From a bacterium (GTDB lineage: Bacteria > Omnitrophota > Gorgyraeia > Duberdicusellales > 4484-171), in assembly GCA_021796115.1 (NCBI GenBank), contig JAJYOP010000005.1, forward strand, positions 13,039 through 77,038: a stretch of DNA of 64,000 nt. The letters are read 5' to 3'. The notes beneath the pieces are model-generated. The model saw only the letters and a program-made list of their open reading frames with translations, searched no databases and was not told the origin of the DNA. Made by a program: the position numbers and the translations under genes. Of this stretch, positions 10,104 to 38,739 are shown piece by piece (the first letter of the stretch is position 1; every line of letters starts with the position of its first letter).

Positions 10104-11308
10104 GCGTAACAGGAAGTATTAAAACAGAAAAAAACCTAGAAAGGCTTAGCCGGCAGGATATTGAGGCGTATGAAGAAAAATTTCTTTCGCCGCTGGCCAT
10201 GAAAGCAAGGTGCTCGCGCGGAAGGCGTTACGAGGAGAAAGAGCACTCTTACCGTTCGCTGTATCAGCGCGACAGAGATAGGATAGTGCACTCCGCAGCT
10301 TTTAGAAGGCTTGAATATAAAACGCAAGTTTTTATTTACCATGAAGGTGATTATTTTCGTACCCGCTTAACTCACACGCTTGAAGTTGCGCAAATTGCCC
10401 GCACCATAAGTAAAATTCTACGTCTTAATGAGGACCTTACTGAAGCAGTTGCGCTGGTGCATGATGTCGGCCATACCCCGTTTGGCCATGCAGTCGAAGC
10501 AGTGCTTGACGAATTCATGAAAGAGGAGGGAGGATTTAACCATAATGAGCACGGCCTCAGGGTCGTGGATATTCTTGAGGAGAAATACCCGGATTTTAAA
10601 GGTCTTAACCTTTCCTGGGAAACGCGTGAAGGGATAATCCGCCACAGCTTAAATACGGGCAAAGACTTTGCCGTGCGCTTCGCAGAATTCAATCAAGACA
10701 GGCAGCCTACCCTTGAGACGCAGGTTGTAGATGTCTCTGACGAAATTGCCTACGATAATCATGATATCGATGATGGTATAAAATCAGGGCTTATCGCTGA
10801 ATCGGATTTAAGAAAAAAATCAGCGCTCTGGAACATCACTCATAAACGGGTCAAAGCACAATATTCTAATTTGGAGGAAAAGCTTTTAGTCTATCTGATA
10901 ATACGCAACCTGATTAATTTGCAGGTTACAGATTTAATTGATACCACGCAAAAAAATGCAAAAAGATTAAAAATAAAAACTTATAAAGATGTAAAAAAAT
11001 GCGAGAAAAGAATCGTAGCCTTCAGTAACGAATTAGATGCGCTGCGCAAGGAAATGAGGCATTTTCTTTTTGATAACCTGTATTTTAATTGGCACGTTCT
11101 GCGTATGTCGGATAAAGCCAAAAGGTTTATCAGTTCGCTTTTCGGTATTTATCTTAATAACCCGCGGCTTCTTCCGCCGGAGTTTACAGCAGAATCAAAA
11201 AATATCCATGACATAAGACGAAAAATATGCGATTATATAGCAGGGATGACCGATAGGTATGCTCTTAATGAGCACAAAAAACTATTCGAACCATATGAAA
11301 AGGTATAA
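10100..11308 (+). CDS. dgt: Deoxyguanosinetriphosphate triphosphohydrolase-like HD protein
   Basis: YQRDRDRIVHSAAFRRLEYKTQVF, RLTHTLEV and HDVGHTPFGH motifs. Confidence 0.9.
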   Translation: MSVTGSIKTEKNLERLSRQDIEAYEEKFLSPLAMKARCSRGRRYEEKEHSYRSLYQRDRDRIVHSAAFRRLEYKTQVFIYHEGDYFRTRLTHTLEVAQIARTISKILRLNEDLTEAVALVHDVGHTPFGHAVEAVLDEFMKEEGGFNHNEHGLRVVDILEEKYPDFKGLNLSWETREGIIRHSLNTGKDFAVRFAEFNQDRQPTLETQVVDVSDEIAYDNHDIDDGIKSGLIAESDLRKKSALWNITHKRVKAQYSNLEEKLLVYLIIRNLINLQVTDLIDTTQKNAKRLKIKTYKDVKKCEKRIVAFSNELDALRKEMRHFLFDNLYFNWHVLRMSDKAKRFISSLFGIYLNNPRLLPPEFTAESKNIHDIRRKICDYIAGMTDRYALNEHKKLFEPYEKV

Positions 11309-12329
11309 AACAATATTCTCGACGTTTCATACGGTATACCGGTTGATTACTACAAGCGGCGACGTGAGGAATTTTGCAACTGGTATTTGCCGGCTTTACA
11401 AAAATGCTTTTGGAGCAGACAGCGTAACCATCGTGCTTAAAAACGTAAATAGCCATGGTTTTCTAAAAATGCGTCTCAAAGACAGGCGGCAATTCTTTAA
11501 AAAAGGAGGCATTTCGATATTAACACATGCGGAAAGGGAGATGCTGGACCATGAGAAAGAAGCTATCCTTGAGAATCGTTTAACTTACCCATTTATTTTT
11601 TCAGATACTCTTGGTGCGGTATGTGTCAGGCGTAGCTTGAACGATTTCGGTTTCAGCGAACTCGAAAAAAGATGGTTTTTATCGCTTTCAGAAGAAATAA
11701 GCGTGGCGCTTCGGATTTTTAACCTTTACCGGGAAGAAAAACGCCTGATGATCAATTACATAAAATCCTTGACAAAACTGCTTGATCAATACGTGCCAAC
11801 ATCATATTTACATACAAAGAGTATCTATAAATTAATTAAAGCAATCGGTAAAGAAATGAGCCTTTCTGAATCAGAGACAAAATCTCTGGAATATGCCTCA
11901 TTACTGCATGATGCCGGCAAGATTCAGCTTCCTTCAGGGATTTTAAGGAAACAAACGCCTCTTACGGATGAAGAATATAAGATGATAATGAAGCATCCGC
12001 GTAAAGGTGTTGAGATGATTAAGGATTTAGAAATTTTAAAGCCGGTTATACCCATTATCTTGCATCATCATGAACGCTATGACGGCAAAGGCTATCCTTC
12101 TAAGTTTAAAAAAGACCAGATACCGTTGGGCTCAAGAATATTGTCATTGCTTGATGCATTTGATGCCATGTATTTCGGCCGGCCTTACCGCAAAAGAATA
12201 CTTATGAACGATATCGAAAAAGAGTTGCGGTTGCAAATGGGCAAGCAATTCGACCCCCATATTGTTGAGATTTTCCTGAAAATATTAAAGCGTAAGAATA
12301 TCAGAAAATACTTGCGTTCTTTTTTATAA
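11295..12329 (+). CDS. HD-GYP domain c-di-GMP phosphodiesterase with an N-terminal sensory (GAF-like) region
   Basis: LLHDAGKI and HHHERYDGKGYP motifs. ATG at 11295 is preferred over the track start at 11259. Confidence 0.85.
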   Translation: MKRYKTIFSTFHTVYRLITTSGDVRNFATGICRLYKNAFGADSVTIVLKNVNSHGFLKMRLKDRRQFFKKGGISILTHAEREMLDHEKEAILENRLTYPFIFSDTLGAVCVRRSLNDFGFSELEKRWFLSLSEEISVALRIFNLYREEKRLMINYIKSLTKLLDQYVPTSYLHTKSIYKLIKAIGKEMSLSESETKSLEYASLLHDAGKIQLPSGILRKQTPLTDEEYKMIMKHPRKGVEMIKDLEILKPVIPIILHHHERYDGKGYPSKFKKDQIPLGSRILSLLDAFDAMYFGRPYRKRILMNDIEKELRLQMGKQFDPHIVEIFLKILKRKNIRKYLRSFL

Positions 12330-13372: not shown

Positions 13373-14077
13373 ATGAATAGCAAGAAAGCCCCGTTAATAA
13401 GGTTTTGGCCGTGGCCAAACTCTGGATTAACGGCCATTTTTCTTTTATTTTTACTTTTCTCTTTTAAAGGGTATTGTGTGGAAAATGCTCAAGTCAAAAA
13501 GAAGAATATAAATGTCAGGGTAGACGCAACCGTTGCTTCACCTGTTTTAGGCACCCTTAACAAAGGTGAGATAGTAAGCGTCGTCGAAGAGAAATTTGAC
13601 TGGTCTAAAATTATACTTCCCAAAAGATTTTCTGCCTATGCCGCATCGCAATTTCTGAAAAAAATTGACGACAATAAAGTTGAAGTCATTGTTTCTGACT
13701 TAAATCTTCGAAATGCGCCATCGCTTTATTCATACACAATAGGAAAAGCAGACAAAGGGAATGTATTTTTTTATCGGAGTGAAGGCAATGGATGGTTTGA
13801 ATTAAGAGCTTACCCGTATATTTACGGATGGGTAAACAAGAATTTTTTGACTAAGGTTGAGAAGCCAGTCAGTGTGGAGGGAATAATTTCTCCTGCGCAG
13901 AATTATACTTGCGAAGCAAACTGCGTTCTAAAAACAAATGTCACAGAGTATCTGGTAAGCCTGCTTTATAAGGGCAAAACGAAATTCATGAATAAAAAAG
14001 TAAGAATCGAAGGCGTACAGGTAAAAGGGAGCGGATGCACTTATATCTATGTAGAGAAGCTGGTATTTGTAAAATGA
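13373..14077 (+). CDS. Secreted protein with two bacterial SH3-like domains
   Basis: Signal/TM segment. Two segments NVRVDATVASPVLGTLNKGE..W and LNLRNAPSLYSYTIGKADKG..W. Confidence 0.6.
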   Translation: MNSKKAPLIRFWPWPNSGLTAIFLLFLLFSFKGYCVENAQVKKKNINVRVDATVASPVLGTLNKGEIVSVVEEKFDWSKIILPKRFSAYAASQFLKKIDDNKVEVIVSDLNLRNAPSLYSYTIGKADKGNVFFYRSEGNGWFELRAYPYIYGWVNKNFLTKVEKPVSVEGIISPAQNYTCEANCVLKTNVTEYLVSLLYKGKTKFMNKKVRIEGVQVKGSGCTYIYVEKLVFVK

Positions 14078-14694
14078 GCGCCCTCCCGGTTATCTTGCTT
14101 TTATTCATTTTGTTTTTTTCGCTTACCCTGCATGAATATGCCCATGGATGGGTGGCGTATAAACTTGGCGACCCCACAGCTAAAGCGAGCGGGCGCCTCA
14201 CTCTGAACCCGCTTGCCCATATCGATCCCTTTGGAACCATCATTTTGCCCATTCTTCTTTTAATTATCAGTCATTGGAATTTTTCGTTTGGTTGGGCAAA
14301 ACCCGTGCCGATAAATCCTTATCAATTTAAAAATCCAAAAAAAGATATACTTTGGGTTGGTTTAGCCGGGCCTTTAGCAAATTTTTTCCTTGCAATTTTC
14401 TTTATTCTTATTTTAAAAGTTTTTAATTATTCTTTCCTGCCAGAAATACTTAAGGAAGCTATAGTCATTAATATAATATTCGTAGTATTTAATCTTGTGC
14501 CGATACCGCCACTTGACGGTTCCCGAATAGCTAGCGCGCTTTTACCGTTTAAATTGTCTCTTTTATACCGTAAAATAGAGCCGTTTGGAGTATTCATCGT
14601 TATGTTTTTAGTTATGATTGGTTTTTTTCGCTGGTTTATTTTGCCCATTGTAATATTTATTCTTTCTCTGTTAAAAATAAAAATTGTGATGTAA
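14074..14694 (+). CDS. Site-2 protease family (M50) zinc metalloprotease
   Basis: HEYAHGW zinc motif, RLTLNPLAHIDPFGT, multiple TM helices, NLVPIPPLDG. Confidence 0.8.
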   Translation: MSALPVILLLFILFFSLTLHEYAHGWVAYKLGDPTAKASGRLTLNPLAHIDPFGTIILPILLLIISHWNFSFGWAKPVPINPYQFKNPKKDILWVGLAGPLANFFLAIFFILILKVFNYSFLPEILKEAIVINIIFVVFNLVPIPPLDGSRIASALLPFKLSLLYRKIEPFGVFIVMFLVMIGFFRWFILPIVIFILSLLKIKIVM

Positions 14695-14705: not shown

Positions 14706-15794
14706 ATGAAAACTATAAAGATAAAACTTCCCGAAAGTTCTTACAATATTAATATCGGACCCAATTTATTCAGAAATATTTTGCCGAATATAAATCGACT
14801 AAAAATTGGTAATTTCGCAGTTATTGTCAGCTCAAAGGCCGTTTATTCTTATTATAAGGCGCAGATTGAAAAAAATTTTAAAGGGTTGCCTTGCAAAATT
14901 ATTGTGCTTCCCAATGGCGAAGGAGCAAAGACTAAAGAAAGCCTTTTTAAAATCATAGACGGCATAACAAATGTTGATAAGCTGGGCAGGAAAATATTTC
15001 TGGTGTGTCTTGGCGGCGGTACAATCGGTGATGTTGGGGCTTTTGCTGCATCAATTTATAAACGCGGCATAGCTTATGTGCAAATTCCTACCACTTTGCT
15101 TTCCCAGATTGACGCGGGTATCGGTGGAAAAACCGCTATCGATTTAAGGCAAGCGAAGAATATACTCGGCACCTTCTACCAGCCAAAAGCAGTTTTCATC
15201 GACCCCCTTTTTTTACGTACATTGTCAGAGAAAGAGCTTAAGGAGGGGCTTAGCGAGGCGGTTAAGTATGGTATTATTCGAGATAGCCGTTTTTTCTATT
15301 TTTTAAAAGAAAATTATCGAAATTTACTGTCTTTACGGCCATCCGCAATATTGCGCTTAATCCAGACTTGCGCTGCAATAAAAGCGAAAATTGTGGAAAA
15401 AGACGAAAAAGAAAAAAAAGGGATACGGACGGTGCTTAATTTTGGTCATACTCTCGCGCACGCCATAGAGGCTGTCTCAAAATATAAAAAGATTTCACAT
15501 GGCGCAGCAGTTTCTGTCGGCATGTTGTATGCCGCATATCTTTCGCATAGCCTTGGACTTTGTAGCCACGCCGAGATTAAAGAGATTAAAGATATATTGG
15601 CTAAACTAAAACTTCTGGTAAAAATTAACTTTGATTATGCCAAAATTTATAAAGCAATGAGCTACGATAAGAAGTTCATTCGTGGCAAGTTCCGCTTCGT
15701 AGCTTTACGGAAAATCGGGCAAGTTAAAGTTATCGAAAATATTCCTAACAATTTGATACGTAGTACGTTACAAAAACTTAACGCCTCGGTTTGA
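14706..15794 (+). CDS. aroB: 3-dehydroquinate synthase
   Basis: GGGTIGDVGAFAAS, IPTTLLSQIDAGIGGKT and NFGHTLAHAIE motifs. Confidence 0.9.
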   Translation: MKTIKIKLPESSYNINIGPNLFRNILPNINRLKIGNFAVIVSSKAVYSYYKAQIEKNFKGLPCKIIVLPNGEGAKTKESLFKIIDGITNVDKLGRKIFLVCLGGGTIGDVGAFAASIYKRGIAYVQIPTTLLSQIDAGIGGKTAIDLRQAKNILGTFYQPKAVFIDPLFLRTLSEKELKEGLSEAVKYGIIRDSRFFYFLKENYRNLLSLRPSAILRLIQTCAAIKAKIVEKDEKEKKGIRTVLNFGHTLAHAIEAVSKYKKISHGAAVSVGMLYAAYLSHSLGLCSHAEIKEIKDILAKLKLLVKINFDYAKIYKAMSYDKKFIRGKFRFVALRKIGQVKVIENIPNNLIRSTLQKLNASV

Positions 15795-15829
15795 CAAATG
15801 GGCAAAAATATGTTATATTAATTAAATTT

Positions 15830-16147
15830 ATGGCATACGAAAGAAGAAAAAACACACGCGCCTATGTTTCGTTTCCGCTGGAATGTAATGTCCTTCCTGG
15901 CAAGGGCTATTTCTATACCGTCAGTAAAGATTTAAGTGTTGGAGGAGCAAGGATACTCTGCAACGAATTCCTGGTAAAAGATAACCAACTTTTGCTTAAT
16001 ATAAATTTTATCGATAAAGTTATGGATATCAGGGCTAAGGTTGTTTGGTGCAACAAAGAGCGGACATCAGACAGGTATTATGCCGGAGTAGAATTCCTGG
16101 AATTGTCCGAAGATAGCAAAAAATATTTGAATTCAATAACAAGGTAA
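15830..16147 (+). CDS. PilZ-domain protein
   Basis: Both c-di-GMP-binding motifs present: RRKNTR (RxxxR) and DLSVGG (D/NxSxxG). Confidence 0.75.
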   Translation: MAYERRKNTRAYVSFPLECNVLPGKGYFYTVSKDLSVGGARILCNEFLVKDNQLLLNINFIDKVMDIRAKVVWCNKERTSDRYYAGVEFLELSEDSKKYLNSITR

Positions 16148-16151: not shown

Positions 16152-16298
16152 ATGGCAAAAGCCGAAGAAAAAAGAAAAAATTGTCTTGCCTGCAATAAAT
16201 CATTGAAACGCATAAAATGGTACTACAGGAATAACGGCCATTTTTGCAATAAAAATTGTTTTAAGGAATTTCTTAAAAAACAAGCTGCAAAAACTTAA
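16152..16298 (+). CDS. 48-aa Cys4 zinc-ribbon (TRASH-like) protein, absent from the ORF track
   Basis: MAKAEEKRKNCLACNKSLKRIKWYYRNNGHFCNKNCFKEFLKKQAAKT, pattern CxxC-x17-CxxxC. Its TAATG overlaps the next PilZ gene. Confidence 0.4.
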   Translation: MAKAEEKRKNCLACNKSLKRIKWYYRNNGHFCNKNCFKEFLKKQAAKT

Positions 16299-16675
16299 TG
16301 GTTGAGAAGAGAAGTTACCCCCGCATTGAAGGTATATTGCCCCTTAAGCTTTCCGGTAGCGAATCCGATATCGTAACCGAGACAAAAAATATAAGCGCTA
16401 GCGGCGCATATTGTATTGTCTGCGAATCAGTTGAGCCCATGACAAAGCTTGATATGGTTTTGTTTATGCCTGCCACCAAAGGCAGTGTCAAGGCAGTTAA
16501 AAAAATATGCTGTAAGGGGGTTGTGATAAGAAGCGACCGCTTCGAAGATAACGGGAGAACATCTTATTGTCTCGGCATATATTTTAGTGAAATAAAAGAA
16601 AGCGACAGAAAAAGCATAATTACCTACGTTAATTCAGCCCTAAAAGAATCCGGCCATATTTCAAACGTCTTCTAA
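16298..16675 (+). CDS. PilZ-domain protein
   Basis: KRSYPR (RxxxR) and NISASG (NxSxxG) motifs. Confidence 0.75.
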   Translation: MVEKRSYPRIEGILPLKLSGSESDIVTETKNISASGAYCIVCESVEPMTKLDMVLFMPATKGSVKAVKKICCKGVVIRSDRFEDNGRTSYCLGIYFSEIKESDRKSIITYVNSALKESGHISNVF

Positions 16676-19071: not shown

Positions 19072-19278
19072 TTATTTCTGCGCTACTACCTGATCTTGAG
19101 GATTATAATGGATGTTTAAAAAATCCAAGACTATTTTCCGGATATATACCGAAGGTTCCAGGTGTGCCTTTTGCGCCCAGTTCAGGATTTCAACCCACTG
19201 CTCACGCGTAAGCCGGACATTTATAGTTTTAGTGTATTTTACCATCTTTTTTGGCCGTCCTCTTTTAGTATTAGGCAT
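19072..19278 (-). CDS. Small ribbon-helix-helix-like DNA-binding protein
   Basis: Basic N-terminus (KRGRPKK), then INVRLTREQWVEILNWAQ, consistent with an RHH strand-helix-helix. Confidence 0.4.
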   Translation of the reverse strand: MPNTKRGRPKKMVKYTKTINVRLTREQWVEILNWAQKAHLEPSVYIRKIVLDFLNIHYNPQDQVVAQK

Positions 19279-19418: not shown

Positions 19419-20078
19419 TTATAGGGTTTCTTGGACCAGATTTATGGTGGTCATGGGGGTGTTTGGCGGGCCATCTACGCCATTGTACAGCACAAGAATG
19501 CCGTCGCTTTCCCTAAACCAATAAAAAGCATGCCAGAATATAGAACGAAAACCGGCGAGTACAACTTTTACCTTATAGGCACGAATTTCTTTGCAGTTTA
19601 CCTTAACGGTCTCAATACCGTAATTTAAGGCTTTTATCTTGTAGGGTGTTAAGTCAAGCGGATTTAATGTCCAAAATATGACAACTTTCTTCTTCTTAGC
19701 TTTTATAAATTTTGACAAAGAAAAAGACATCGGCTGATACCAGGGGTCAACGTCTATACCAATTTTTGTATTTAGGGGTTTGCCCTTAAAAGTACCATTA
19801 ATTTGTATGGAATTTTTATTACGTTTAGCCAGGATGTCGGTTTTTTCTACGCTATTCTTGTATTGCCACTCTAAAGCATTAAGGTTGAAGTCATTGGTTG
19901 TTATATAGCTTTCCTCTCCCCGTTTATACCCAAAAGTTACCCAATGTTTTTCATTCTTTATATCCCAGAATATTTCCCGGCACCGGGAACCTGTTGTTTC
20001 AATATATTTTAAAGTTTTAGCTTCAGCACAAAGGCTAATAGTAAAAAACAACAAAAGATATACAAACAAATACCGCAT
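19419..20078 (-). CDS. Secreted hypothetical protein
   Basis: N-terminal signal peptide MRYLFVYLLLFFTISLCAEA; no recognised motif. Confidence 0.5.
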   Translation of the reverse strand: MRYLFVYLLLFFTISLCAEAKTLKYIETTGSRCREIFWDIKNEKHWVTFGYKRGEESYITTNDFNLNALEWQYKNSVEKTDILAKRNKNSIQINGTFKGKPLNTKIGIDVDPWYQPMSFSLSKFIKAKKKKVVIFWTLNPLDLTPYKIKALNYGIETVKVNCKEIRAYKVKVVLAGFRSIFWHAFYWFRESDGILVLYNGVDGPPNTPMTTINLVQETL

Positions 20079-20079: not shown

Positions 20080-20412
20080 CTATTTAGATTTTATTACCGC
20101 TATTTTTAAAGTAACATGCTCTTCGTCATTCCATGGCCAAAACATTGCGATTATCGTTCCGTTTTGAGAGTCTTTCTTAAAAAGTGCCTGATTGTCCCAT
20201 ATGCCGCCATAATTTCTTGTGAGTTCGGCCATCTTATTACTAGGCTTTTCACCAGGTTTTTTAACAGCCGGGCCAAAGATATCCGTTAACGTTTTTAATA
20301 AAGCAGGCGTATTTAGCAGGACTAATTCGTTATAATCATCCCGTATCGAGCGCCTTTCCTGAATGCCAAGTTCTTCTAATTGCGTAACAATTTTTGCTAT
20401 ATCCATTTGCAT
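20080..20412 (-). CDS. Hypothetical protein
   Basis: 110-aa ORF tightly packed with its neighbours; no recognised motif. Confidence 0.45.
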   Translation of the reverse strand: MQMDIAKIVTQLEELGIQERRSIRDDYNELVLLNTPALLKTLTDIFGPAVKKPGEKPSNKMAELTRNYGGIWDNQALFKKDSQNGTIIAMFWPWNDEEHVTLKIAVIKSK

Positions 20413-20414: not shown

Positions 20415-20612
20415 TTAAAGTGAGGTGACCAGCTTTTTAAGATTAGAAACGTCGCTTTTTAGCTCCATTCCATTTCTTTTCAGGGCTTTTTGCATGCGCT
20501 CATAAACCTGGAGTAAGGTCGTGCCTTCGGTCAGATAATTTACGCAAACAGCGGCATAACCACGGCGATTCTTTATTTTAAATATTTTAATTTTGCGCGC
20601 ATTGATTTTCAT
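20415..20612 (-). CDS. Hypothetical small protein (weak HicB/UPF0150-like pattern)
   Basis: GYAAVCVNYLTEGTTLLQVYERMQKAL loosely resembles the HicB-fold core. Confidence 0.3.
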   Translation of the reverse strand: MKINARKIKIFKIKNRRGYAAVCVNYLTEGTTLLQVYERMQKALKRNGMELKSDVSNLKKLVTSL

Positions 20613-20645: not shown

Positions 20646-21215
20646 TTAAGCGTCATGGTCTATATCATTAATTATATCGTTACCGCGGGTATTTTGCCCG
20701 ATATTCTTCGGCAAATCGCTCGCTTGGCTTTGCGATTGGGCGTTTGACTTTTTATCCGGCTGAATCTCCTTTTCAGCTAAGGCGGAATTTAATTTTACGG
20801 TAAGTTCTTTTACCTGGTCGGCTAACTTTTTATTTCCATTTTCTTTTTCTATAAGTTTTTCTTTTAAGCTTTCATTCTCAGCTCTTAAGAGGTCAATTCC
20901 AGACTTGTTATTGTCTTCGGCAAGGCGCATATTCTGCAAGTCTTCTCTCATTGCATTTTCATTAGCGTGAGCCTCTTCTAATTCTGCTTTTGCCGCTTCC
21001 AGGGCTTTTTTTATCTTTTCGGTCTCATCAGCTAAGCCCGTCCGTTCAAATTCTAGCTTTTGGAGTTTCACGTTCTGAGAGATTACTTGTTGTTTTAAAT
21101 CGTAGATAGTATTTTCTCTTTGGTGCTTATTTTTTACTTCGCCTGAACTTGAAAAAAAAGTATATAAGGCAAACCCAATACCAAGTGTGACAATAATTAT
21201 TAACACGAATTCCAT
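20646..21215 (-). CDS. Membrane-anchored coiled-coil protein
   Basis: N-terminal TM helix, a long heptad-like Glu/Lys/Leu-rich region, and a Ser/Gln-rich tail. Confidence 0.55.
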   Translation of the reverse strand: MEFVLIIIVTLGIGFALYTFFSSSGEVKNKHQRENTIYDLKQQVISQNVKLQKLEFERTGLADETEKIKKALEAAKAELEEAHANENAMREDLQNMRLAEDNNKSGIDLLRAENESLKEKLIEKENGNKKLADQVKELTVKLNSALAEKEIQPDKKSNAQSQSQASDLPKNIGQNTRGNDIINDIDHDA

Positions 21216-21219: not shown

Positions 21220-21939
21220 TTACTCCTGTTGGCTATGGCTTAAATTTCTTTCAACGAAATCGATTATTTGTTCCTGTGCCCGTTGGCTGATATCGTGAAA
21301 TTCTATGCCCATAGCCGGTGATTCAACGGGTTGTATTTCTTTATCGGCTTCCCATACCACTTTAGCATCGACTTCCAGGATACCCGGCACTGGTTCAAGA
21401 TGTAGGCGCGTGGTCAGCATTTCGCCGACAGAAAAGATCTTTTCGGCAATGATGAAGGCACCTATGGCGCTCAAATTTTCAATCTTTCCTTTAAGGTATG
21501 CCAGATTTGCAGCATATTTTTGTTTATATTCGATGGTACGCTGTAGCGGCACACGTTTGAAGCGCCGGCGCAAGCGTTGTTCCAGGATATGCGAGAACAA
21601 TTCTTCTTCTTTGAAACTTTTTATAGCGGTTTCTTCGTTTTCATAATAATCGAATACTTTATCTAATCCAACCACAGAAAATAATTTTTGTACGTGGCTT
21701 GGCACGTGAACCAGCTTCATTTTTCCTTTGTGGTTCAAGACGTTTTTGTATGCCACGGCTATCAAGGAAATGCCCACATAATCTATAAGGTTTATCCCTT
21801 CAAAATTACAGAGGATATTTTTGGATTTAGTGACCAGGGCCCAGCCGACAGTTTCGACAAAATCCGAGGCATTTATGTCGATGCTTCCTTCTATATCAAG
21901 AATGACGATATTTTCAACTTCGCGTATATTTATTTTCAT
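21220..21939 (-). CDS. STAS (anti-sigma-factor-antagonist-like) domain fused to a PilZ domain
   Basis: N-terminus IVILDIEGSIDINAS..INLIDYVGISLI..KLVHVPSHVQKLFSVVGLDKVF is STAS-like. C-terminus has RRRFKR (RxxxR) and NLSAIG (NxSxxG). Confidence 0.75.
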   Translation of the reverse strand: MKINIREVENIVILDIEGSIDINASDFVETVGWALVTKSKNILCNFEGINLIDYVGISLIAVAYKNVLNHKGKMKLVHVPSHVQKLFSVVGLDKVFDYYENEETAIKSFKEEELFSHILEQRLRRRFKRVPLQRTIEYKQKYAANLAYLKGKIENLSAIGAFIIAEKIFSVGEMLTTRLHLEPVPGILEVDAKVVWEADKEIQPVESPAMGIEFHDISQRAQEQIIDFVERNLSHSQQE

Positions 21940-21966
21940 ATATGGTTAAGAATAGATTCAGTCATA

Positions 21967-22242
21967 TTAATGCTTTAATAGCAAGAGAAGGAAAAATAAC
22001 AGTATGGCAAGTCCTGTTGCAATCATAATATATTCTAATAGATGGGAGTTTTTTGTTGCAGGGATTTCCGGGAGGGATTCTTCTTTTTTTTCGGTAATGC
22101 CTGGCCGGTCCATTGTTTGACCAAGGTACTCACGGCACTCGTTACACACACAGAGATGCTCTTCGACTTTCAGTATCTCGGCTTCTGTTGCCGTGTGTTT
22201 TATGTAGGCAGGAATTATGGTTTTGATTTCTTCGCAACTCAT
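21967..22242 (-). CDS. Putative zf-HC2 anti-sigma factor with a C-terminal TM helix
   Basis: MSCEEIKTIIPAYI..EEHLCVCNECREYL (H-x3-C-x2-C) plus a hydrophobic C-terminus. Confidence 0.6.
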   Translation of the reverse strand: MSCEEIKTIIPAYIKHTATEAEILKVEEHLCVCNECREYLGQTMDRPGITEKKEESLPEIPATKNSHLLEYIMIATGLAILLFFLLLLLKH

Positions 22243-22317: not shown

Positions 22318-22479
22318 TTAGCGTTTCCCTTTTGCAGCTTTTCGTCTTTTTTGAGAAGGTTTTGTATAATATTGGCGCTCTTTAAAATTTTCAACAATGC
22401 CTTCTCTCTTGCACTGTATTTTAAACATGCGCAAAGCTTTTTCAAAATCTTCTCTCCTGTCTATTCTAACTTCAGCCAT
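22318..22479 (-). CDS. rpsU: 30S ribosomal protein S21 (53 aa, absent from the ORF track)
   Basis: Hand translation gives MAEVRIDRREDFEKALRMFKIQCKREGIVENFKERQYYTKPSQKRRKAAKGKR. AGGAGGT RBS upstream. Confidence 0.85.
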   Translation of the reverse strand: MAEVRIDRREDFEKALRMFKIQCKREGIVENFKERQYYTKPSQKRRKAAKGKR

Positions 22480-22742
22480 CTGCGTTAAACACCTCCTAAG
22501 TTACTAACCAACCCCACTCACTTCGCCTCAAGCTTTGCTTGGGGCAACTCGACTAACTCTTTTTGCTTTGCAAAAAGACAGTTTCATTGTTTGGGGATAA
22601 TTCGCACTTATCTTTTTTAGGAAAATCCTAAAAAAGATTGTGTCCTTATTATATCAAATAAATCTAATACCGCAAGCAAAATAAGCCAAAAAATACCCCC
22701 CTCCTCAACCGATTGATAAAAACTTTTAGAACTCGCAAATCA

Positions 22743-22815
22743 TGCCCCCACCCCGAGTCGAACGGGGATTTCAGCCTTAGGAGGGCCGCGCTCTGTCCGT
22801 TTGAGCTATAGGGGC
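22743..22815 (-). tRNA. tRNA-Arg (anticodon CCT)
   Basis: Hand-folded: acceptor GCCCCTA/TGGGGGC, D arm GCTC..GAGC, anticodon stem CGGCC/GGCTG with loop CTCCTAA, T arm CCCCG-TTCGACT-CGGGG. Confidence 0.85.
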
Positions 22816-22874
22816 AATTAAACAGATGATAGATAACACCTGCCTGCCGGCAGGGATGACAACAAGAAATAGGG

Positions 22875-23387
22875 TTAAAACTTTATTAATGAATAAACCG
22901 GATAATTTCTTAACTTATCTTTTCCATTCAAGCCGGTTAATTCAATAAGAAATGTTACGCCCACGATGTCAGCTTTTAGTTTTTTGGCAAGCGCAATAAG
23001 AGCGAGAGCTGTTCCGCCTGTAGCAAGAAGGTCGTCGAGTATCAGGACTTTTGAATTTTCAGGAAAGGCATCTTGATGGATTTCCAGGGAATCGCAGCCG
23101 TATTCAAGCGAATATGTGTGCTGGTATGTTTTATATGGGAGCTTCCCCGGTTTTCTTACCGGCACAAGTCCACATCCTAATTTATAGCATAAAGCTCCAG
23201 CAAACAAGAACCCGCGTGATTCCGCAGCAACAATGTAATCAATTTTTTTATTTTTTAAAAGTTTTGCCAAATTGTCAATGGCACTTTTAAATGCTTTTTT
23301 GTTATTCAAGAGAGTGGTTATATCTTTGAAAAGAATCCCTTTTTTAGGAAAGTCAGGTATGTTGCGGATATACTTTTTCAAATCCAT
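22875..23387 (-). CDS. apt: Adenine phosphoribosyltransferase
   Basis: PDFPKKGILFKDIT N-terminal motif and PRPP-binding VLILDDLLATGGTA. Confidence 0.9.
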   Translation of the reverse strand: MDLKKYIRNIPDFPKKGILFKDITTLLNNKKAFKSAIDNLAKLLKNKKIDYIVAAESRGFLFAGALCYKLGCGLVPVRKPGKLPYKTYQHTYSLEYGCDSLEIHQDAFPENSKVLILDDLLATGGTALALIALAKKLKADIVGVTFLIELTGLNGKDKLRNYPVYSLIKF

Positions 23388-23393: not shown

Positions 23394-24215
23394 CTAGCTT
23401 TCTAAATCTTTTTTTTGCTCTTCTATTGCATATTTCTTCAATTTATCTAAGGCGTCTTTTTCTATCTGTCTTATGCGTTCACGCGAAACGTTCAAAGCTT
23501 TCGAAACGTCAGCCAGTGTATGCGATTTACCATTGATTATCCCAAAACGTAAATTCAATACTTGGCGTTCCCGTTCGTTAACGAAATCTAAAAAGTGGAT
23601 AACTCTTTCGTGGTTAAAAAATTTCTCAACCTCCTTATTGGTATCAGCGTATTCCTCGCTTTTAATAAAATCGCCAAGCTGTGATTCACCTTCTTCTCCA
23701 ACCGGCGCTTCAAGGGAGGCTTTTTTCTGCATCCACATCTCAATTTCCCCGACCTTTTCCGCCGGTAATTTCATTTTTGCGGCAATTTCGCTTCTTGCCG
23801 GCTCTCTTTTTAGGCTCTGGCGCAAATGTTCGTGAATTTTTTTGTATTTCGACATGAATTCGCTCATGTAAACCGGAATACGGATGGTTTTGCCCTGATC
23901 GATTAACGCCCGGGAAATCGCCTGGCGTATCCACCAGGCAGCGTAAGTTGAAAAGCGAAAACCTTTTTTGACATTGAATTTATCGATGGCCCGCATTAGA
24001 CCAATGTTACCTTCCGCTATTAAGTCCATGAGCGGCAGGTCAAAATGGCTGTAATGTTTTGCAATGTTTACAACAAGCTTGAGGTTTGCATTGATAATTT
24101 TGCGGCGCGCCTCACGGTTGCCTTTTTTTGCTTTACGTATCAACTGCTCCTCGTCTTTTTTTGAAAGAAGAGGTATGTTTTTAATCTTATCCAGATAGGC
24201 TTTGATTGCTTCCAT
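23394..24215 (-). CDS. Sigma-70 family RNA polymerase sigma factor (RpoD/RpoS-like, no region 1.1)
   Basis: Region 2 DLIAEGNIGLMRAIDKFNVKKGFRFSTYAAWWIRQAI and region 4 TLADVSKALNVSRERIRQIE. Confidence 0.9.
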   Translation of the reverse strand: MEAIKAYLDKIKNIPLLSKKDEEQLIRKAKKGNREARRKIINANLKLVVNIAKHYSHFDLPLMDLIAEGNIGLMRAIDKFNVKKGFRFSTYAAWWIRQAISRALIDQGKTIRIPVYMSEFMSKYKKIHEHLRQSLKREPARSEIAAKMKLPAEKVGEIEMWMQKKASLEAPVGEEGESQLGDFIKSEEYADTNKEVEKFFNHERVIHFLDFVNERERQVLNLRFGIINGKSHTLADVSKALNVSRERIRQIEKDALDKLKKYAIEEQKKDLES

Positions 24216-24217: not shown

Positions 24218-26974
24218 TTATTTTTTCTTTTTGCTTTTTGCGCTCGGTTTATTATTTAAAACCGCCTGTGCTGCGGAAAGCCTGGCTATAGGCACTCTGA
24301 AAGGCGAGCAGGATACGTAATCCATGCCTACTCTATGGCAAAAATCAATCGATCTGGGCTCTCCTCCGTGTTCTCCACAAATCCCAACTTTTAATTCTTT
24401 ACGGGTTGTTCTTCCTCTTTCGATGCCGATTTTAATAAGCTGGCCAATGCCTTCCTGGTCAATGGTCTGGAAGGGATCGTCGGATAATACCCCTTTCTTA
24501 AGGTAGTCCGGAAGAAATCCGCCGATATCATCACGTGAGAATCCAAAGCCCATTTGCGTCAGGTCGTTGGTTCCGAAGGAGAAAAATTCCGCAAGCTTTG
24601 CGATTTCGTCAGCAGTTAAAGCCGCGCGCGGAATTTCAATCATGGTTCCGAACATTGACGGCATGTTTTTTAACGAATATTTCTTCATAACCTCATTCTT
24701 AATGCGTTGTACGATAGCCAGCTGGTCGCTTAATTCTTTTACTGTGCAGACGACAGGAATCATAATTTCCGGCTCAATTTTTTTCCCAACCTTGATTAAT
24801 TCCGCAGATGCTTCAAGTATTGCCCTTACCTGCATTTCGGTAATTTCAGGATAGGTAATACCGAGCCGGACTCCGCGATGGCCCATCATTGGATTACTTT
24901 CATGCAGGGCTTCGGCGCGTTTTTCAAACTCTTCAATAGAAATTCCCAAGCTTTGGGCTAATTCTTTACGTTGCGCTTCTTCTCTTGGCACAAACTCATG
25001 TAAAGGCGGATCAAGCAAACGGATAGTTACAGGATAGCCATCCATGGCCTCAAGGGTTTTTTTGATATCATCTTTGGCATACGGGAAAAGTTCGGCTAAT
25101 GCCTTGCGCCTTTCTTCCTCGGTTTTTGAAGCGATCATTTTACGAAGAAGAAATAGCGGCTGTTCCGAACCTTTTCCGTAGAACATGTGTTCGGTTCTGA
25201 ATAGGCCAATTCCTTCCGCACCGAATGAGCGGGCTTTTCTTGCATCTTCTGGAGTGTCGGCATTAGCGCGAATTTTAAGCCGGCGCACGCCATCGCACAT
25301 TTTTAAAAAATCTGCAAGCACTTTATTTTCTTCAGAGGCATCCACCATTTTTAGTTTTCCAAAATAAACATTTCCTTTCGTGCCATTTAAGGTCAGCCAC
25401 TCGCCTTCTTTAACGGTTTTGTCGCCGATCTTTACGGTTTTTGTATCATAATCTACATGCAAGGCGCCGCAACCGACGATGCAGCATTTTCCCCAACCCC
25501 TTGCAACGAGTGCAGCATGTGAAGTCATGCCGCCTCTTGCCGTAAGTATGCACTGGGCAGCCCTCATACCTTCAACGTCTTCAGGATTTGTTTCTTCTCT
25601 TAGAAGAAGAACTTGCTTGCCTTCTTTTGACCATTTAACTGCGTCATTTGCGCTAAAAACAATCATTCCAGCTGCACCACCCGGACCGGCAGGAAGGCCT
25701 TTGGCAATGGGTTTATTTGCCGCCTCTTCTCTGGGGTCAATTATCGGATGAAGCAATTCATCCAACTGCGCAGGGGTGACCCTCGATACTGCGGTTTCTT
25801 TACTGATGCGTTTTTCCCTGACCATATCAACAGCCATTTTTACTGCAGCAGGGCCATTGCGCTTTCCAACGCGGCATTGAAGCATGAAGAGTTTACTTTT
25901 TTCAATCGTAAATTCGATATCAAGCATGTCGTGATAGTGTTTTTCCAGGCGGTTTCTTATATCAACAAGTTCTTTGTAAATCTTAGGCGATGATTCTTCT
26001 AAACTGATCAATCCTTTGTTATGTTCGCTTTTTGAGTATTTATTAAGCGGCGCTGGCGTGCGGATTCCGGCAACCACGTCTTCGCCTTGTGCGTTTACGA
26101 GATACTCACCGTAAAATGCGTTTTCTCCGCTACCCGGATTTCTGGTAAAAGCAACGCCGGTTGCGCTATCGTCGCCCATATTTCCGAAAACCATGGTTTG
26201 GACAGTTACCGCTGTTCCCCATTCATTAGGAATATTTTCGATGCGCCGATACGCAATTGCTCTTTTTCCGTTCCAGGAAAGAAATACTGCAGAAATTCCT
26301 CCCCATAATTGTTCCATTGGGTCATCGGGAAATTCTTTCTTCAGTACTTCTTTTATTTTTGTTTTAAACAAGGAGCAAAGAGTTTTTAAGTCACTCGCGC
26401 TAAGTTCGGTATCGCTCTTTGCGCCTTTTTTGCTCTTCATTTCCGTCATGATTTTTTCAAGCTGTTTGCGGATGCCCATTTCATCATTTTCCGGTTCAAT
26501 GCCGGCAGCCTTTTCCATGACGACATCGGAATACATCATAATCAAGCGCCGGTAAGCATCATATACAAACCGTTCATTCTTGGTTTGCTTGGTTAATCCA
26601 GGTATGGTTTTTTCGGTAAGGCCCACGTTTAAAACTGTTTCCATCATTCCCGGCATTGACTTTCTTGCGCCGGAACGCACGGAAACAAGAAGCGGATTGT
26701 TAACATCGCCAAATTTTTTGCCCATTAAGGTTTCTACTTTTTTTAACGCTTTCACTACGTCTTCCTTCAGAATTTTAGGATAAGTACGTTTGTTAGCGTA
26801 ATAATAAGTACAAACTTCGGTTGTGATTGTGAATCCCGGGGGAACCGGTAGACATAAATCTTTATGGCCGGCCATTTCAGCAAGGTTGGCGCCTTTTCCG
26901 CCAAGAAGATTCTTCATGCTTTCATTGCCGTCGGCTTTTCCTCCACCAAACGAATACACATACTTTTTCGCCAT
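24218..26974 (-). CDS. ppdK: Pyruvate, phosphate dikinase
   Basis: 918 aa. Phosphohistidine motif GGMTSHAALVARGWG and C-terminal PEP-utilising TIM barrel (FSFGTNDLTQ, CGEHGG). Confidence 0.95.
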   Translation of the reverse strand: MAKKYVYSFGGGKADGNESMKNLLGGKGANLAEMAGHKDLCLPVPPGFTITTEVCTYYYANKRTYPKILKEDVVKALKKVETLMGKKFGDVNNPLLVSVRSGARKSMPGMMETVLNVGLTEKTIPGLTKQTKNERFVYDAYRRLIMMYSDVVMEKAAGIEPENDEMGIRKQLEKIMTEMKSKKGAKSDTELSASDLKTLCSLFKTKIKEVLKKEFPDDPMEQLWGGISAVFLSWNGKRAIAYRRIENIPNEWGTAVTVQTMVFGNMGDDSATGVAFTRNPGSGENAFYGEYLVNAQGEDVVAGIRTPAPLNKYSKSEHNKGLISLEESSPKIYKELVDIRNRLEKHYHDMLDIEFTIEKSKLFMLQCRVGKRNGPAAVKMAVDMVREKRISKETAVSRVTPAQLDELLHPIIDPREEAANKPIAKGLPAGPGGAAGMIVFSANDAVKWSKEGKQVLLLREETNPEDVEGMRAAQCILTARGGMTSHAALVARGWGKCCIVGCGALHVDYDTKTVKIGDKTVKEGEWLTLNGTKGNVYFGKLKMVDASEENKVLADFLKMCDGVRRLKIRANADTPEDARKARSFGAEGIGLFRTEHMFYGKGSEQPLFLLRKMIASKTEEERRKALAELFPYAKDDIKKTLEAMDGYPVTIRLLDPPLHEFVPREEAQRKELAQSLGISIEEFEKRAEALHESNPMMGHRGVRLGITYPEITEMQVRAILEASAELIKVGKKIEPEIMIPVVCTVKELSDQLAIVQRIKNEVMKKYSLKNMPSMFGTMIEIPRAALTADEIAKLAEFFSFGTNDLTQMGFGFSRDDIGGFLPDYLKKGVLSDDPFQTIDQEGIGQLIKIGIERGRTTRKELKVGICGEHGGEPRSIDFCHRVGMDYVSCSPFRVPIARLSAAQAVLNNKPSAKSKKKK

Positions 26975-28543: not shown

Positions 28544-29394
28544 CTAATAAACTAGGGTTAATTCAAATTTCTTTGTTTTTTGTGCCAGATCCTTGGGAAA
28601 CGGCGGAAACGGTACTGCCTGTTTTAGGGCTTCTAGGGCATAAGGGTCGAGCTTGAAATTAGTGCTTTTTGTTACGGAAGGATTCTCTAACAACGTGCCG
28701 TCATCTGAAAGGGTGAACGCGATTTTGACTTCGCCCCTCTCCTTGTCAGGTTTATGGGCCCGGCTTATTTCTCGTATGCGATTTACAAGCAGGCTGTAAT
28801 AACTTTCCGGAGGTATATCGCCCGAAAGATTTGTCTTTGGATTGACGATTCGTTCTTTGACGAGTTTCCCACCGACCATGCTGATAACAGCACCGTCCTG
28901 TGGTTTTATTTCCGCAAAATCCGTATATGCTGCTTCTCCAGAAACAATATGGGGCGTTAGAAGTATTATTAAATCGTTTTTATCAACTTCATCGGAGGTG
29001 CTGCTGAAAAGGTAACGTAATCCCGGTAAATCACCAAGAATAGGTATCTTTTTTACGGTTTTCTTATGCTGGTCCTGCCGGAGGCCGCCGATGATTATGG
29101 TTATGCCGTCTTTTACCATAACGGTTGTCTCTGTTTCCGATGAGGTTACGATTGGCACGTCAGTTTTTTTATCCTGAGAAATTATTGTTTTTGTTTCGGC
29201 AGAGCTTATTTCTGGTTTTATTTTCATAGTTACAAAACCCTTGGTGTTGATAGTCGGCGTTACAAAAAGCTTGATTCCGGTTTCGACAAAATTAACTGAG
29301 TCGGCAGTAACGGCATTTCCCTCGGTTTGGGTTACGGTTGATGTTATGTAGGCATCCTTGTAATTGGCGTAATCTAATTTTTTCCTGACTTTTC
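28544..29394 (-). pseudogene. N-terminally truncated secretin (GspD/PilQ C-domain) fused to a TonB_C-like domain
   Basis: Secretin core FVETGIKLFVTPTINTKGFVTMKIKPEISS..IPILGDLPGLRYLF..LLTPHIV. The open frame starts right after a TGA at about 29395, and the first ATG is at 29227. The tail KIAFTLSDDGTL..LDPYALEALKQAVPFPPFP is TonB_C-like. Confidence 0.55.
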
Positions 29395-31939: not shown

Positions 31940-32121
31940 GAATTTATCCTGCTATAAAGTTCCAAATCCCGATTTCCAATGACCAAACAAATTCTAATAT
32001 CCAATGACCAAATTCTCAAGCCTAAAATTTTGGACATCGGAACGCGAAAATTAAATTTGTCTGGAATTTGTCCTTGGAGGTCGAATGGGTTTGAGCTTGG
32101 TGCTTGGAATTTTCTCATGCG
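31940..32121. repeat. Second copy-class of the CCAA/TTGG intercistronic palindrome
   Basis: ttccaatgaccaaacaaattctaatatccaatgaccaaa on +. Its reverse complement carries tttggtcattggatatt, as at 314-330. Confidence 0.6.
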
Positions 32122-32721
32122 CTAGGAACTAAACACTGTTTCTCGGCGGCAATCAGGGCACAGGATACTGAACCTTGAAGCGCGTTTAAGCAGCTTATCT
32201 GCGGCATAGCATTTTTTGCCGAAAAGCATACTTTGAGCAAAGGTAAGTAGTGTTGTATTTGGCGGATATAAGGCCCCGAGTTTTTTAATTGTCCAATCCA
32301 GGTGGTCTTTGCAGGCAAAAGCTCTATTGCAGCATTCGCAGAAAATCATCTCTTTCTCTATTGTCTGGATAAGACTTTTTCTGTTTTCTGTTGTTGCAAT
32401 GTCGAATTCGTTGGAGAGCATTATTCCTTCAACACTTACGCAGTTTAATTGGCATTGCCCACAGGCAATGCATACATCCCAATTAACCGTGAACACTCTT
32501 TTTGCGCGGCCATTCTCCGCCACGTCCTTAAAGTTTAAAGCTTTTGTCGGGCAAACATTAACACAAGCGGTGCAGCCGATACACTTATCTTCATAATAAT
32601 AAGGCCGGCCGCGGAACGCGCGAAAAGGAATGCAAGGCTTTTTAGGAAACTTTGTTGTATAAGCCTTTGAAAATAAAGAAGTTATGGCGCCTTTTATTTC
32701 GCGTAATTTTGGATATTTCAT
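32122..32721 (-). CDS. NuoI/MbhN-like 2x[4Fe-4S] subunit with a Cys-rich C-terminal extension
   Basis: CIGCTACVNVCP and CIACGQCQLNC motifs. Extra CECCNRAFAC..CPDC motifs. Confidence 0.75.
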   Translation of the reverse strand: MKYPKLREIKGAITSLFSKAYTTKFPKKPCIPFRAFRGRPYYYEDKCIGCTACVNVCPTKALNFKDVAENGRAKRVFTVNWDVCIACGQCQLNCVSVEGIMLSNEFDIATTENRKSLIQTIEKEMIFCECCNRAFACKDHLDWTIKKLGALYPPNTTLLTFAQSMLFGKKCYAADKLLKRASRFSILCPDCRRETVFSS

Positions 32722-32744
32722 TTTATTACCCGGTTAAATCATTA

Positions 32745-33420: not shown

Positions 33421-33527
33421 CAAGCCCTTCCTTTTTTTAAACATTTTCCGAGTGCATCTTTGTTTTGTTCCAACCTTTCCATATCTTTATAGATAAACAT
33501 CGTTTGTTTTGGAAGGGCTGGGTTCAT
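33417..33527 (-). repeat. Intercistronic cassette copy 1: 36-codon sORF plus SD-sequestering helices
   Basis: The ATG lies 1 nt after the mrpE-like stop, and its TGA overlaps the GTG of the next gene. Peptide MNPALPKQTMFIYKDMERLEQNKDALGKCLKKGRAW. 95 of 111 nt are identical to 35506-35616. Confidence 0.6.
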
Positions 33528-33528
33528 C

Positions 33529-35616: not shown

Positions 35617-35617
35617 A

Positions 35618-38693: not shown

Positions 38694-38739
38694 TTAACCT
38701 CGTTTTGCCGGTAGAGTACAGATAACAGAAATAAAAAAA

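Follow-up and report, generated by a model that had tools for sequence, protein, structure and literature searches.

On the minus strand of a 64,000-nucleotide (nt) stretch of DNA from an uncultivated bacterium of the phylum Omnitrophota (contig JAJYOP010000005.1, positions 13,039 to 77,038; the whole stretch is referred to below as the window), a gene for a small membrane protein with a zf-HC2 zinc finger is followed by one for a fusion of a STAS domain with a PilZ domain. The STAS-PilZ fusion is real and both of its halves are canonical in fold. The fusion and its operon are specific to Omnitrophota, phylum-wide and uncharacterised; they are not categorically new. The reading that we favour, at a probability of about 40%, is that cyclic di-GMP (c-di-GMP) controls a phosphorylation-independent switch by which the STAS domain acts on the zf-HC2 protein. 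The two genes and their parts are as follows.

21967-22242, minus strand: tail-anchored zf-HC2 protein of 91 amino acids (aa), resembling zinc-binding anti-sigma (ZAS) factors (Pfam zf-HC2).
22108-22242, minus strand: zinc-finger head of the zf-HC2 protein, residues 1-45 (three helices in the AlphaFold model and the alignment).
22051-22107, minus strand: disordered linker of the zf-HC2 protein, residues 46-64 (AlphaFold predicted local distance difference test, pLDDT).
21973-22050, minus strand: C-terminal transmembrane tail anchor of the zf-HC2 protein, residues 65-90 (AlphaFold helix, pLDDT 93-95).
21220-21939, minus strand: STAS-PilZ fusion protein of 239 aa (Pfam STAS and PilZ, TIGR00377).
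21625-21939, minus strand: STAS (SpoIIAA-like) domain, residues 1-105 (profile and Foldseek).
21778-21780, minus strand: codon of Tyr54 of the STAS-PilZ protein, at the position of the phosphorylated serine of SpoIIAA/RsbV.
21250-21570, minus strand: PilZ domain, residues 124-230 (Pfam and Foldseek).
21553-21570, minus strand: RRRFKR (RxxxR motif), residues 124-129, right behind the helix (102-122) that links the two domains.
21460-21477, minus strand: NLSAIG ((D/N)xSxxG motif), residues 155-160, a c-di-GMP motif of PilZ.

This layout agrees with the original prediction, which had been made from the DNA sequence alone: both genes lie where it placed them, separated by exactly 27 nt (21940-21966). 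Its assignment of STAS and PilZ, which it had said failing profile searches would refute, is borne out by Pfam, NCBIfam and Foldseek alike, with both families above their cutoffs, and the two PilZ motifs that it described as intact (RRRFKR, NLSAIG) are present at residues 124-129 and 155-160. It had also correctly reported rpsU upstream, no gene for an extracytoplasmic function (ECF) sigma factor beside the zf-HC2 gene in the window, and a membrane coiled-coil gene as the next one downstream (20646-21215, with a transmembrane segment and a coiled coil).

The PilZ half of the fusion protein (residues 124-230) matches its family with an E-value of 2.2e-14 (PF07238, 54.1 bits; cutoff 22.5). In a Foldseek search it resembled the c-di-GMP-bound YcgR (5y6g), Alg44 (4rt0), MotI (5vx6) and MapZ (5xly), as well as BcsA. 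Among 33 homologues the residues R124, R125, F127, R129, G151, S157, G160, W196, G211 and F214 are invariant. The first four belong to the RRRFKR motif and are likewise invariant in the proteins encoded at the related loci, while S157 and G160 belong to NLSAIG, of which N155 is at least 90% conserved. Judged by its sequence, the PilZ half retains every residue expected to bind c-di-GMP, and its predicted fold is the canonical one.

The STAS half (residues 3-105, E 5.9e-14) scores 52.2 bits against PF01740 (cutoff 22.6) and 54.6 bits against TIGR00377, the anti-sigma-factor antagonist family (cutoff 53.45). In the AlphaFold model of the whole protein (pLDDT 85.8, predicted template modelling score 0.51) the order is STAS (residues 1-100), a long connecting helix (102-122), a hinge with the RRRFKR motif, a six-stranded PilZ barrel and a C-terminal helix; pLDDT dips at residues 110-130, the hinge region. 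The structural matches of the STAS half are SpoIIAA (1th8_B, template modelling score 0.86, root mean square deviation 1.6 Å), RsbV, TM1442 and RsfB (scores up to 0.86). No single chain in the PDB spanned both halves in the Foldseek search. A profile of the family matched solved SpoIIAA structures with an E-value of 4.5e-14.

The alignment behind this match places the segment vDYvGis over mDSSGlg of SpoIIAA, so that Tyr54 occupies the site of the serine phosphorylated by SpoIIAB. In the protein encoded in the window the segment reads D53-Y54-V55-G56, as against DSSG in SpoIIAA and RsbV. Helix alpha2 has no phosphorylatable Ser/Thr at its N-terminal end; an invariant tyrosine takes its place in all 33 homologues and in the 67 proteins encoded at related loci. 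The other invariant STAS residues among the homologues are G18, S25, E29, G32, N45, D53, G56, S58, K65, N66, N69, F87, V90, G91 and E102, and the best-conserved surface is formed by D53, Y54, G56, S58, Y64, K65, N66, N69, H70 and G72. Since more distant STAS-PilZ proteins (P0157, P0162, P0177, P0180, P0209, P0220 and P0225) retain D/S-S-x-G, the loss of the phosphorylation site is derived and specific to the Omnitrophota family. STAS-PilZ fusions with this canonical motif, possibly regulated by phosphorylation, thus occur beyond that family, on metagenome contigs (L081:6001-6720 is listed with these distant proteins). In one distant STAS-PilZ protein, P0194, the site reads SNVSSTA; its gene is monocistronic among unrelated genes. 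For the second distant context, the contigs were too short for the neighbours to be judged.

A search for homologues of the fusion protein returned 154 clusters, all of about 239 aa and all composed of STAS and PilZ, with identities between about 50% and 100%; all clusters with a named organism stem from metagenome-assembled genomes of Candidatus Omnitrophota. A profile search of 1.84 billion representative sequences gave 30 clusters at E < 1e-30 and a tail of distant full-length STAS-PilZ proteins of 230-245 aa. The named ones among these distant clusters are again all from Omnitrophota, and most are metagenome contigs without an organism name. No description of a STAS-PilZ fusion was found in the literature searched and, to our knowledge, the two domains have never been studied as one polypeptide.

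The 91-aa zf-HC2 protein matches PF13490 with an E-value of 1.4e-7 (31.9 bits; cutoff 22.2). Its zinc site, C3...H29-x3-C33-x2-C36, consists of an HxxxCxxC motif and an upstream cysteine, and the spacing of 26 residues between C3 and H29 is that of RsrA. Orthologues occur at 47 related loci and all start with M-x-C; the invariant residues of the head (26-31 orthologues) are C3, Y13, H16, E27, H29, L30, C31, C33, C36 and R37. The family search returned Omnitrophota proteins only, 31 zf-HC2 proteins in number. AlphaFold places helices at residues 3-14, 20-32 and 34-45 and a transmembrane helix at 65-90, with disorder between them at 46-64 (pLDDT below 50 at 51-63). In all 47 orthologues the sole hydrophobic helix lies at the extreme C-terminus, and in nearly all of them the hydrophobic run stops 1-3 residues before the stop codon. 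The head and tail are conserved, while the linker, which is acidic, Pro-rich and of low complexity, ranges from about 25 aa, in proteins of 87-120 aa, to about 400 aa in the long forms, so that total lengths are 87-455 aa.

Each of the 12 best Foldseek matches of the head in the PDB is the cytoplasmic domain of an ECF anti-sigma factor with bound sigma (MucA-AlgU, RslA-SigL region 4 and RsiW-SigW; E 0.5-2.6), and the sequence profile matches ChrR, RsiW and RslA at E 0.26-0.68. Sequence and model together suggest that the head is ZAS-like, a minimal three-helix version of the anti-sigma domain. None of the zf-HC2 proteins has an extracytoplasmic domain. Because the protein is tail-anchored and lacks an outside domain, the usual trigger by site-1 proteolysis is ruled out, and this makes a cytoplasmic antagonist attractive.

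The long zf-HC2 forms (186-455 aa; L005, L019, L021, L023, L027, L031, L034, L035, L038, L039, L041 and L076) have linkers that are partly repetitive and share a conserved motif, (D/E)(M/I/L)EY(F/V)PG. A juxtamembrane motif, Y(S/P)LDxxPL, is also present in these forms, and both motifs may dock other partners. On the plus strand, opposite to the module and some 7 kb away, lies the gene of a 219-aa M50-family peptidase (site-2-protease type; 14035-14694). This enzyme could conceivably cleave the zf-HC2 protein within the membrane, but its gene is not linked to the module at other loci.

Conservation of the gene order was followed in 73 loci, one genome per GTDB species, in which neighbouring open reading frames (ORFs) were labelled with iterated hidden Markov models built from the window proteins and BacA; the counts are limited to the 69 loci with at least 1.3 kb of upstream sequence. 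The zf-HC2 gene lies upstream of the STAS-PilZ gene, directly or with bacA between them, at 45 of the 69. The order zf-HC2, bacA/uppP (PF02673, undecaprenyl-diphosphatase), STAS-PilZ is found at 35 loci, and the pair without an intervening gene at 10, which make up the clade of the window. Neither zf-HC2 nor bacA is found upstream at the remaining 24, whose STAS-PilZ proteins are mostly at most 48% identical. The adjacency spans at least three clades and extends down to about 46-50% STAS-PilZ identity; shared by 45 of the 69 loci, it is not due to chance. As the genes overlap or are a few nt apart (-4 to +13 nt between zf-HC2 and bacA, mostly -4 to +44 nt between bacA and STAS-PilZ), they form a translationally coupled operon. 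The coupling of zf-HC2 and STAS-PilZ postulated in the original prediction is accordingly seen as a tightly packed operon kept in about 45 species. The zf head (mean pairwise distance 0.45) is as conserved as STAS (0.39) and PilZ (0.49), and more so than BacA (0.54).

In the switch that we favour, c-di-GMP would bind at the RxxxR hinge right after the helix connecting STAS and PilZ and, by analogy with YcgR, MotI and PP4397, would re-orient the STAS domain relative to the PilZ barrel. This movement would expose or hide the alpha2/alpha3 face of the STAS domain (DYxGIS...YKNxxNHxG); SpoIIAA grips its partner with the same face. The STAS domain would then bind or free the zf head at the membrane, in competition with the cargo of the head, the zf-HC2 protein being the presumed partner by genetic linkage. 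The most likely cargo, for which RslA provides a precedent, would be a sigma-70-family factor whose gene lies elsewhere, held by its region 4. The second messenger would stand in for the kinase/phosphatase pair of classical partner switching, and the module, constitutively expressed, would act at the inner membrane through protein-protein switching. Parts of such a scheme have precedents: the STAS protein HsbA reportedly binds FlgM, an anti-sigma factor that is not a kinase, and c-di-GMP is said to act on the anti-sigma factor RsiG, the partner of sigmaWhiG.

The genes flanking the module in the window, from the upstream end, are as follows.

24218-26974, minus strand: pyruvate-phosphate dikinase, at the upstream end of the gene order given here.
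23394-24215, minus strand: 273-aa RpoD/RpoS-like protein of the sigma-70 family, with regions 1.2, 2, 3 and 4 (Pfam, NCBIfam).
22875-23387, minus strand: apt, upstream of the module.
22742-22816, minus strand: tRNA-Arg(CCU), between apt and rpsU.
22318-22479, minus strand: rpsU, ribosomal protein S21 (Pfam and TIGR00030), 75 nt upstream of the zf-HC2 gene.
20646-21215, minus strand: 189-aa protein with a transmembrane segment and a coiled coil, 4 nt downstream of the STAS-PilZ gene.
20415-20612, minus strand: 65-aa ORF of no Pfam or NCBIfam family, co-oriented and tightly packed.
20080-20412, minus strand: 110-aa ORF of no Pfam or NCBIfam family, co-oriented and tightly packed.
19419-20078, minus strand: 219-aa ORF with a signal-peptide-like N-terminus and no Pfam or NCBIfam family.

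In the 189-aa protein a hydrophobic N-terminal transmembrane segment is followed by a region with coiled-coil matches only. The gaps before the 65-, 110- and 219-aa ORFs are 33, 2 and 1 nt, respectively. Downstream genes vary by clade, the 65-aa ORF recurring at 16 loci and the 110- and 219-aa ORFs at 6-9.

Several observations weigh against the proposed switch, beginning with its transcriptional end. No ECF-size sigma factor was found in the window or within 8 kb on either side in the 73 species (about 0.9 Mb) by phmmer with RpoE and SigW as queries, a search of low sensitivity. With default filters the RpoE (Escherichia coli) and SigW (Bacillus subtilis) queries matched nothing, and with the filters off (--max) they matched only the 273-aa RpoD-like sigma factor, weakly; this is also the only sigma factor in the precomputed Pfam tables of four neighbourhoods. 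The original prediction had named it as the partner to be tried, a choice that its distribution does not favour: it lies within 6 kb upstream at only 7 of the 26 zf loci with enough sequence and at none of 13 loci lacking zf-HC2. Such a weak association could reflect inherited synteny, and the factor is only a loosely linked candidate target. Moreover, helix IV, which clamps sigma region 2, is replaced in the zf-HC2 protein by the low-complexity linker, and none of the matches between its head and anti-sigma factors of solved structure is significant by itself (E 0.26-2.6).

The promoters give no sign of ECF control either, the ECF-like motif AAC-N16-17-CGT being found upstream of zf-HC2 at 0 of 47 loci. 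Of the 34 loci where rpsU is not the gene immediately before zf-HC2, 23 carry an extended -10 element (TGnTAnAAT) 16-68 nt ahead of the zf start, against a background rate of 2.7% per 110-nt window. At 13 of the 47 zf loci rpsU immediately precedes zf-HC2, and it is found somewhere upstream at 20-22. The 75-nt spacer between rpsU and zf-HC2 in the window has no significant RNA structure (z 0.81), and at the loci preceded by rpsU, that of the window included, the module genes are probably carried on the rpsU transcript. With a housekeeping-type -10 element or read-through from rpsU, and without an ECF motif, the module looks constitutive rather than ECF-autoregulated, and a post-translational switch fits this mode of expression.

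The distance from the extended -10 element (TTTGATATAAT or similar) to the zf ATG is often as short as 16-19 nt (e.g. L034, L035, L039, L026 and L010), which implies leaderless or near-leaderless zf mRNAs. A terminator composed of a hairpin and a T-tract directly precedes the zf start at several loci where rpsU or a gene for an RRM protein lies upstream (L003, L007, L018, L029, L033, L032 and L043). The yqeY gene is found near STAS-PilZ at 29 loci (e.g. L005, L034 and L061-L075). Both yqeY and rpsU thus recur around the module, and in Bacillus the two are neighbours; an ancestral rpsU-yqeY region may therefore have received the module by insertion.

That the module controls a sigma factor is plausible but unsupported by the gene context. 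Even granting the STAS switch, a sigma factor as its final output seems rather unlikely. The fullest version, in which c-di-GMP makes the STAS domain capture the zf head and thereby frees a membrane-held sigma-70-family factor, possibly the 273-aa one, is doubtful; in this version the module may also integrate thiol/zinc redox signals. The central idea of the original prediction, c-di-GMP control of a sigma/anti-sigma module, has thus fared unevenly. A STAS domain driven without phosphorylation is strengthened by Tyr54 and by the lack of a kinase in about 0.9 Mb, whereas no tie to a sigma factor emerged (no ECF factor within 8 kb on either side, no ECF promoter, no helix IV).

Direct contact between the zf head and the STAS domain is also open to objections. 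We know of no STAS antagonist that binds a ZAS-type anti-sigma factor, those known binding the GHKL type. Mirror-tree correlations over 34 loci were 0.62 for zf head and STAS (partial correlation 0.31 when BacA is controlled for) and 0.29 for zf head and PilZ, and those with BacA were level with the first (0.66 for zf, 0.68 for STAS); the signal is weak, mostly shared phylogeny, and is not decisive for contact. The STAS-PilZ positions specific to the zf-linked clades are few (C44, N50, P80, H82, G91 and some PilZ positions) and equivocal, neither establishing nor excluding contact. The transmembrane coiled-coil gene directly follows STAS-PilZ only in the clade of the window and at L012, L028 and L042.

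Finally, bacA sits between zf-HC2 and STAS-PilZ at 35 of the 45 zf loci, a position which suggests the envelope at least as much as transcription and which the sigma model leaves unexplained. The zf-HC2 protein, BacA/UppP and the STAS-PilZ protein could form a complex in which c-di-GMP tunes the recycling or channelling of undecaprenyl phosphate and no sigma factor takes part; the zf head would then be a membrane dock for STAS, and the output would be peptidoglycan, lipopolysaccharide (LPS) or exopolysaccharide. Such an envelope module, which we regard as a serious rival if somewhat improbable, is favoured by the translational coupling of the three genes, by the housekeeping-type promoter without a nearby sigma gene, and by the structural matches of PilZ to BcsA and Alg44, receptors through which c-di-GMP classically controls polysaccharide synthesis. 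The STAS protein SypA is reported to control the Syp polysaccharide in Vibrio fischeri. Upstream of STAS-PilZ in the divergent clades that lack zf-HC2 lies a gene for another envelope enzyme, an M23 peptidase or a Kdo (3-deoxy-D-manno-octulosonic acid) transferase, but the neighbours there are otherwise housekeeping genes (yqeY, def, panD, cspA), so this envelope flavour may be coincidental. In the clade of the window (10 loci), zf-HC2 and STAS-PilZ stay together in an operon that lacks bacA, and the rest of the 64-kb window lacks it too; BacA is thus dispensable for the pair. In addition, the active site of UppP is periplasmic and little of the protein is exposed to the cytoplasm, as seen in the E. 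coli structures. If the output were undecaprenyl-phosphate recycling after all, this would be a new target of c-di-GMP in envelope biogenesis.

A second alternative places the target of the STAS domain elsewhere in the genome. Its partner could be an RsbW-like kinase, a transporter, a diguanylate cyclase or a hub protein, with the zf-HC2 protein a mere operon neighbour, for instance a thiol/zinc redox sensor like RsrA; H16 and C31, invariant in the zf head beyond the four zinc ligands, could serve redox chemistry. The 21 species whose STAS-PilZ gene has no zf-HC2 neighbour show the same invariance of the STAS alpha2 face as the others, so that the universal partner may be other than zf-HC2. 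One of the distant STAS-PilZ genes stands by itself among its neighbours, and the proteins most similar to the STAS half in sequence and fold are antagonists of GHKL anti-sigma kinases. On the other hand, zf-HC2 is retained as a translationally coupled neighbour in at least three clades, down to about 46-50% identity, and a kinase of the RsbW type would normally require the serine that has been lost here. No SpoIIAB/RsbW-like GHKL kinase was found by phmmer, with SpoIIAB and RsbW as queries, in the window and the 73 neighbourhoods, about 0.9 Mb of sampled Omnitrophota DNA, and no PP2C phosphatase of the RsbU/SpoIIE type is present in the Pfam tables of four neighbourhoods, no dedicated search having been made. 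We consider an unlinked target unlikely.

Chance juxtaposition or mis-annotation of small ORFs is scarcely credible and was rejected, as both ORFs have significant family matches, conserved in 154 STAS-PilZ clusters and 31 zf-HC2 proteins, and the gene order is kept in 45 species-level genomes.

The closest structural counterparts of the STAS half belong to the SpoIIAA-SpoIIAB-sigmaF and RsbV-RsbW-sigmaB systems of Bacillus, with which the family shares the STAS fold and the strong conservation around the start of alpha2. It differs from them in having tyrosine in place of serine, a fused PilZ domain and neither a GHKL kinase nor a sigB/F-type sigma factor nearby; the anti-sigma-like protein encoded next to it is not a kinase but a zinc-finger (ZAS) protein. 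ZAS anti-sigma factors such as RsrA, RslA, RsiW and ChrR share with the zf-HC2 protein the HxxxCxxC motif with an upstream cysteine and the N-terminal three-helix bundle, and in 3hug RslA holds sigma region 4. Unlike them, the protein encoded in the window is tail-anchored without an outside domain, lacks helix IV, carries a variable, disordered acidic linker and is not co-transcribed with an ECF sigma factor.

On the PilZ side, YcgR, MotI/DgrA and PP4397/FlgZ have the same barrel, with RxxxR on the linker to an N-terminal domain, and c-di-GMP at the junction re-orients their domains to create a partner surface. Their N-terminal domain is a PilZN/YcgR-N barrel, however, and their targets are flagellar motor proteins. 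The RsiG-sigmaWhiG system of Streptomyces is a functional likeness, in that c-di-GMP decides the hold of an anti-sigma factor on its sigma factor. RsiG itself binds c-di-GMP by coiled-coil motifs, is fastened in this way to sigmaWhiG, and has no STAS, PilZ, zinc finger or membrane anchor; general Pfam and NCBIfam scans of the zf-HC2 and STAS-PilZ proteins gave no RsiG-like match.

Two further systems tie c-di-GMP to anti-sigma factors. A STAS protein and an anti-sigma factor that is not a kinase are also paired in the HsbR-HsbA-FlgM/HsbD pathway of Pseudomonas aeruginosa, which is likewise wired to c-di-GMP and is not homologous to the module. HsbA, however, is regulated by phosphorylation and acts upstream of c-di-GMP through the cyclase HsbD (PMC6482189), whereas the STAS domain described here would act downstream of it and phosphorylation at the serine site seems impossible in the STAS-PilZ protein. 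For Leptospira interrogans, a PrsW-PilZ fusion has been proposed in silico to couple c-di-GMP to an RsiW-like ZAS anti-sigma factor (PMC12943098). The output there would be proteolysis by a membrane protease, not STAS binding, and it is a prediction only, like the switch proposed here.

Partner switching by STAS domains and c-di-GMP sensing by PilZ domains are both very widespread, and what is known of them comes almost wholly from cultivated model organisms. The family described here is a natural experiment in which the phosphorylation site of STAS has been erased and a second-messenger receptor fused to it, conserved across an uncultivated phylum. If the favoured switch exists, a nucleotide messenger can drive STAS switches without an intermediary, STAS antagonism would extend to zinc-finger anti-sigma factors, and there would be a first handle on how the PilZ-rich Omnitrophota read c-di-GMP. 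In its fullest version, with release of a sigma factor, no earlier case would be known of a STAS protein antagonising a ZAS-type anti-sigma factor or of a sigma switch driven by PilZ. As the parts are small soluble domains, in vitro binding tests would be straightforward even though the hosts have not been grown.

Other genes for c-di-GMP signalling are present in the window. A 356-aa protein (11259-12329, plus strand) contains an HD-GYP domain (HD_5, E 9e-39) with intact HD and GYP motifs and, judging by these, is likely to be a c-di-GMP phosphodiesterase; its N-terminal half is uncharacterised. Two PilZ-only proteins are encoded in tandem on the plus strand (15791-16147, 118 aa, E 6.9e-17; 16298-16675, 125 aa, E 4.7e-8). 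The related Omnitrophota loci also encode many PilZ-only paralogues, often in tandem, and the phylum therefore seems rich in c-di-GMP receptors.

The only GGDEF-domain protein of the window is a 397-aa REC and GGDEF-like protein (44206-45399, minus strand) with a degenerate GGDDF motif, and no bona fide diguanylate cyclase was seen within the 64 kb. GGDDF is found in all 10 orthologues of this protein, nine of which are 55-58% identical and one 33%. In the clade with long zf-HC2 linkers the gene lies about 5 kb downstream of STAS-PilZ (orthologues include L021:7230-8423 and L039:13650-14843). A conserved tandem motif at the C-terminus (PLGQILLxxxxISxEQLxxAL...LGExLKxLGF) resembles the c-di-GMP motif of MshEN and receives no call from Pfam.

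Possible remnants or boundaries of mobile elements are represented by a large serine recombinase (Resolvase, Recombinase and Zn ribbon; 59985-61679, minus strand) and by a 68-aa NikA-like mobilisation protein (19072-19278, minus strand) encoded just beyond the 3' end of the operon. The recombinase gene sits in a stretch (60000-64000) with a GC content down to 0.33-0.37 and a GC skew of -0.15 to -0.25. In a 227-aa ORF (28544-29227, minus strand), which may be a truncated or fused gene, the second half of a secretin domain (profile positions 75-168 of 169) is joined to a TonB C-terminal domain. The region 32000-43000 (minus strand) encodes a large subunit of the 49-kDa/NiFe-hydrogenase type and a Proton_antipo_M subunit and, to judge by its ORF pattern, may be an Mrp-type membrane-bound hydrogenase cluster. 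An LPS-core-like cluster with unusual fusions occupies 45400-56700 (minus strand), including a lipid-A acyltransferase fused to an ELM1-like domain (52564-54366), a GT4 glycosyltransferase fused to a GT9 heptosyltransferase (50451-52556), and a Kdo transferase (55364-56686).

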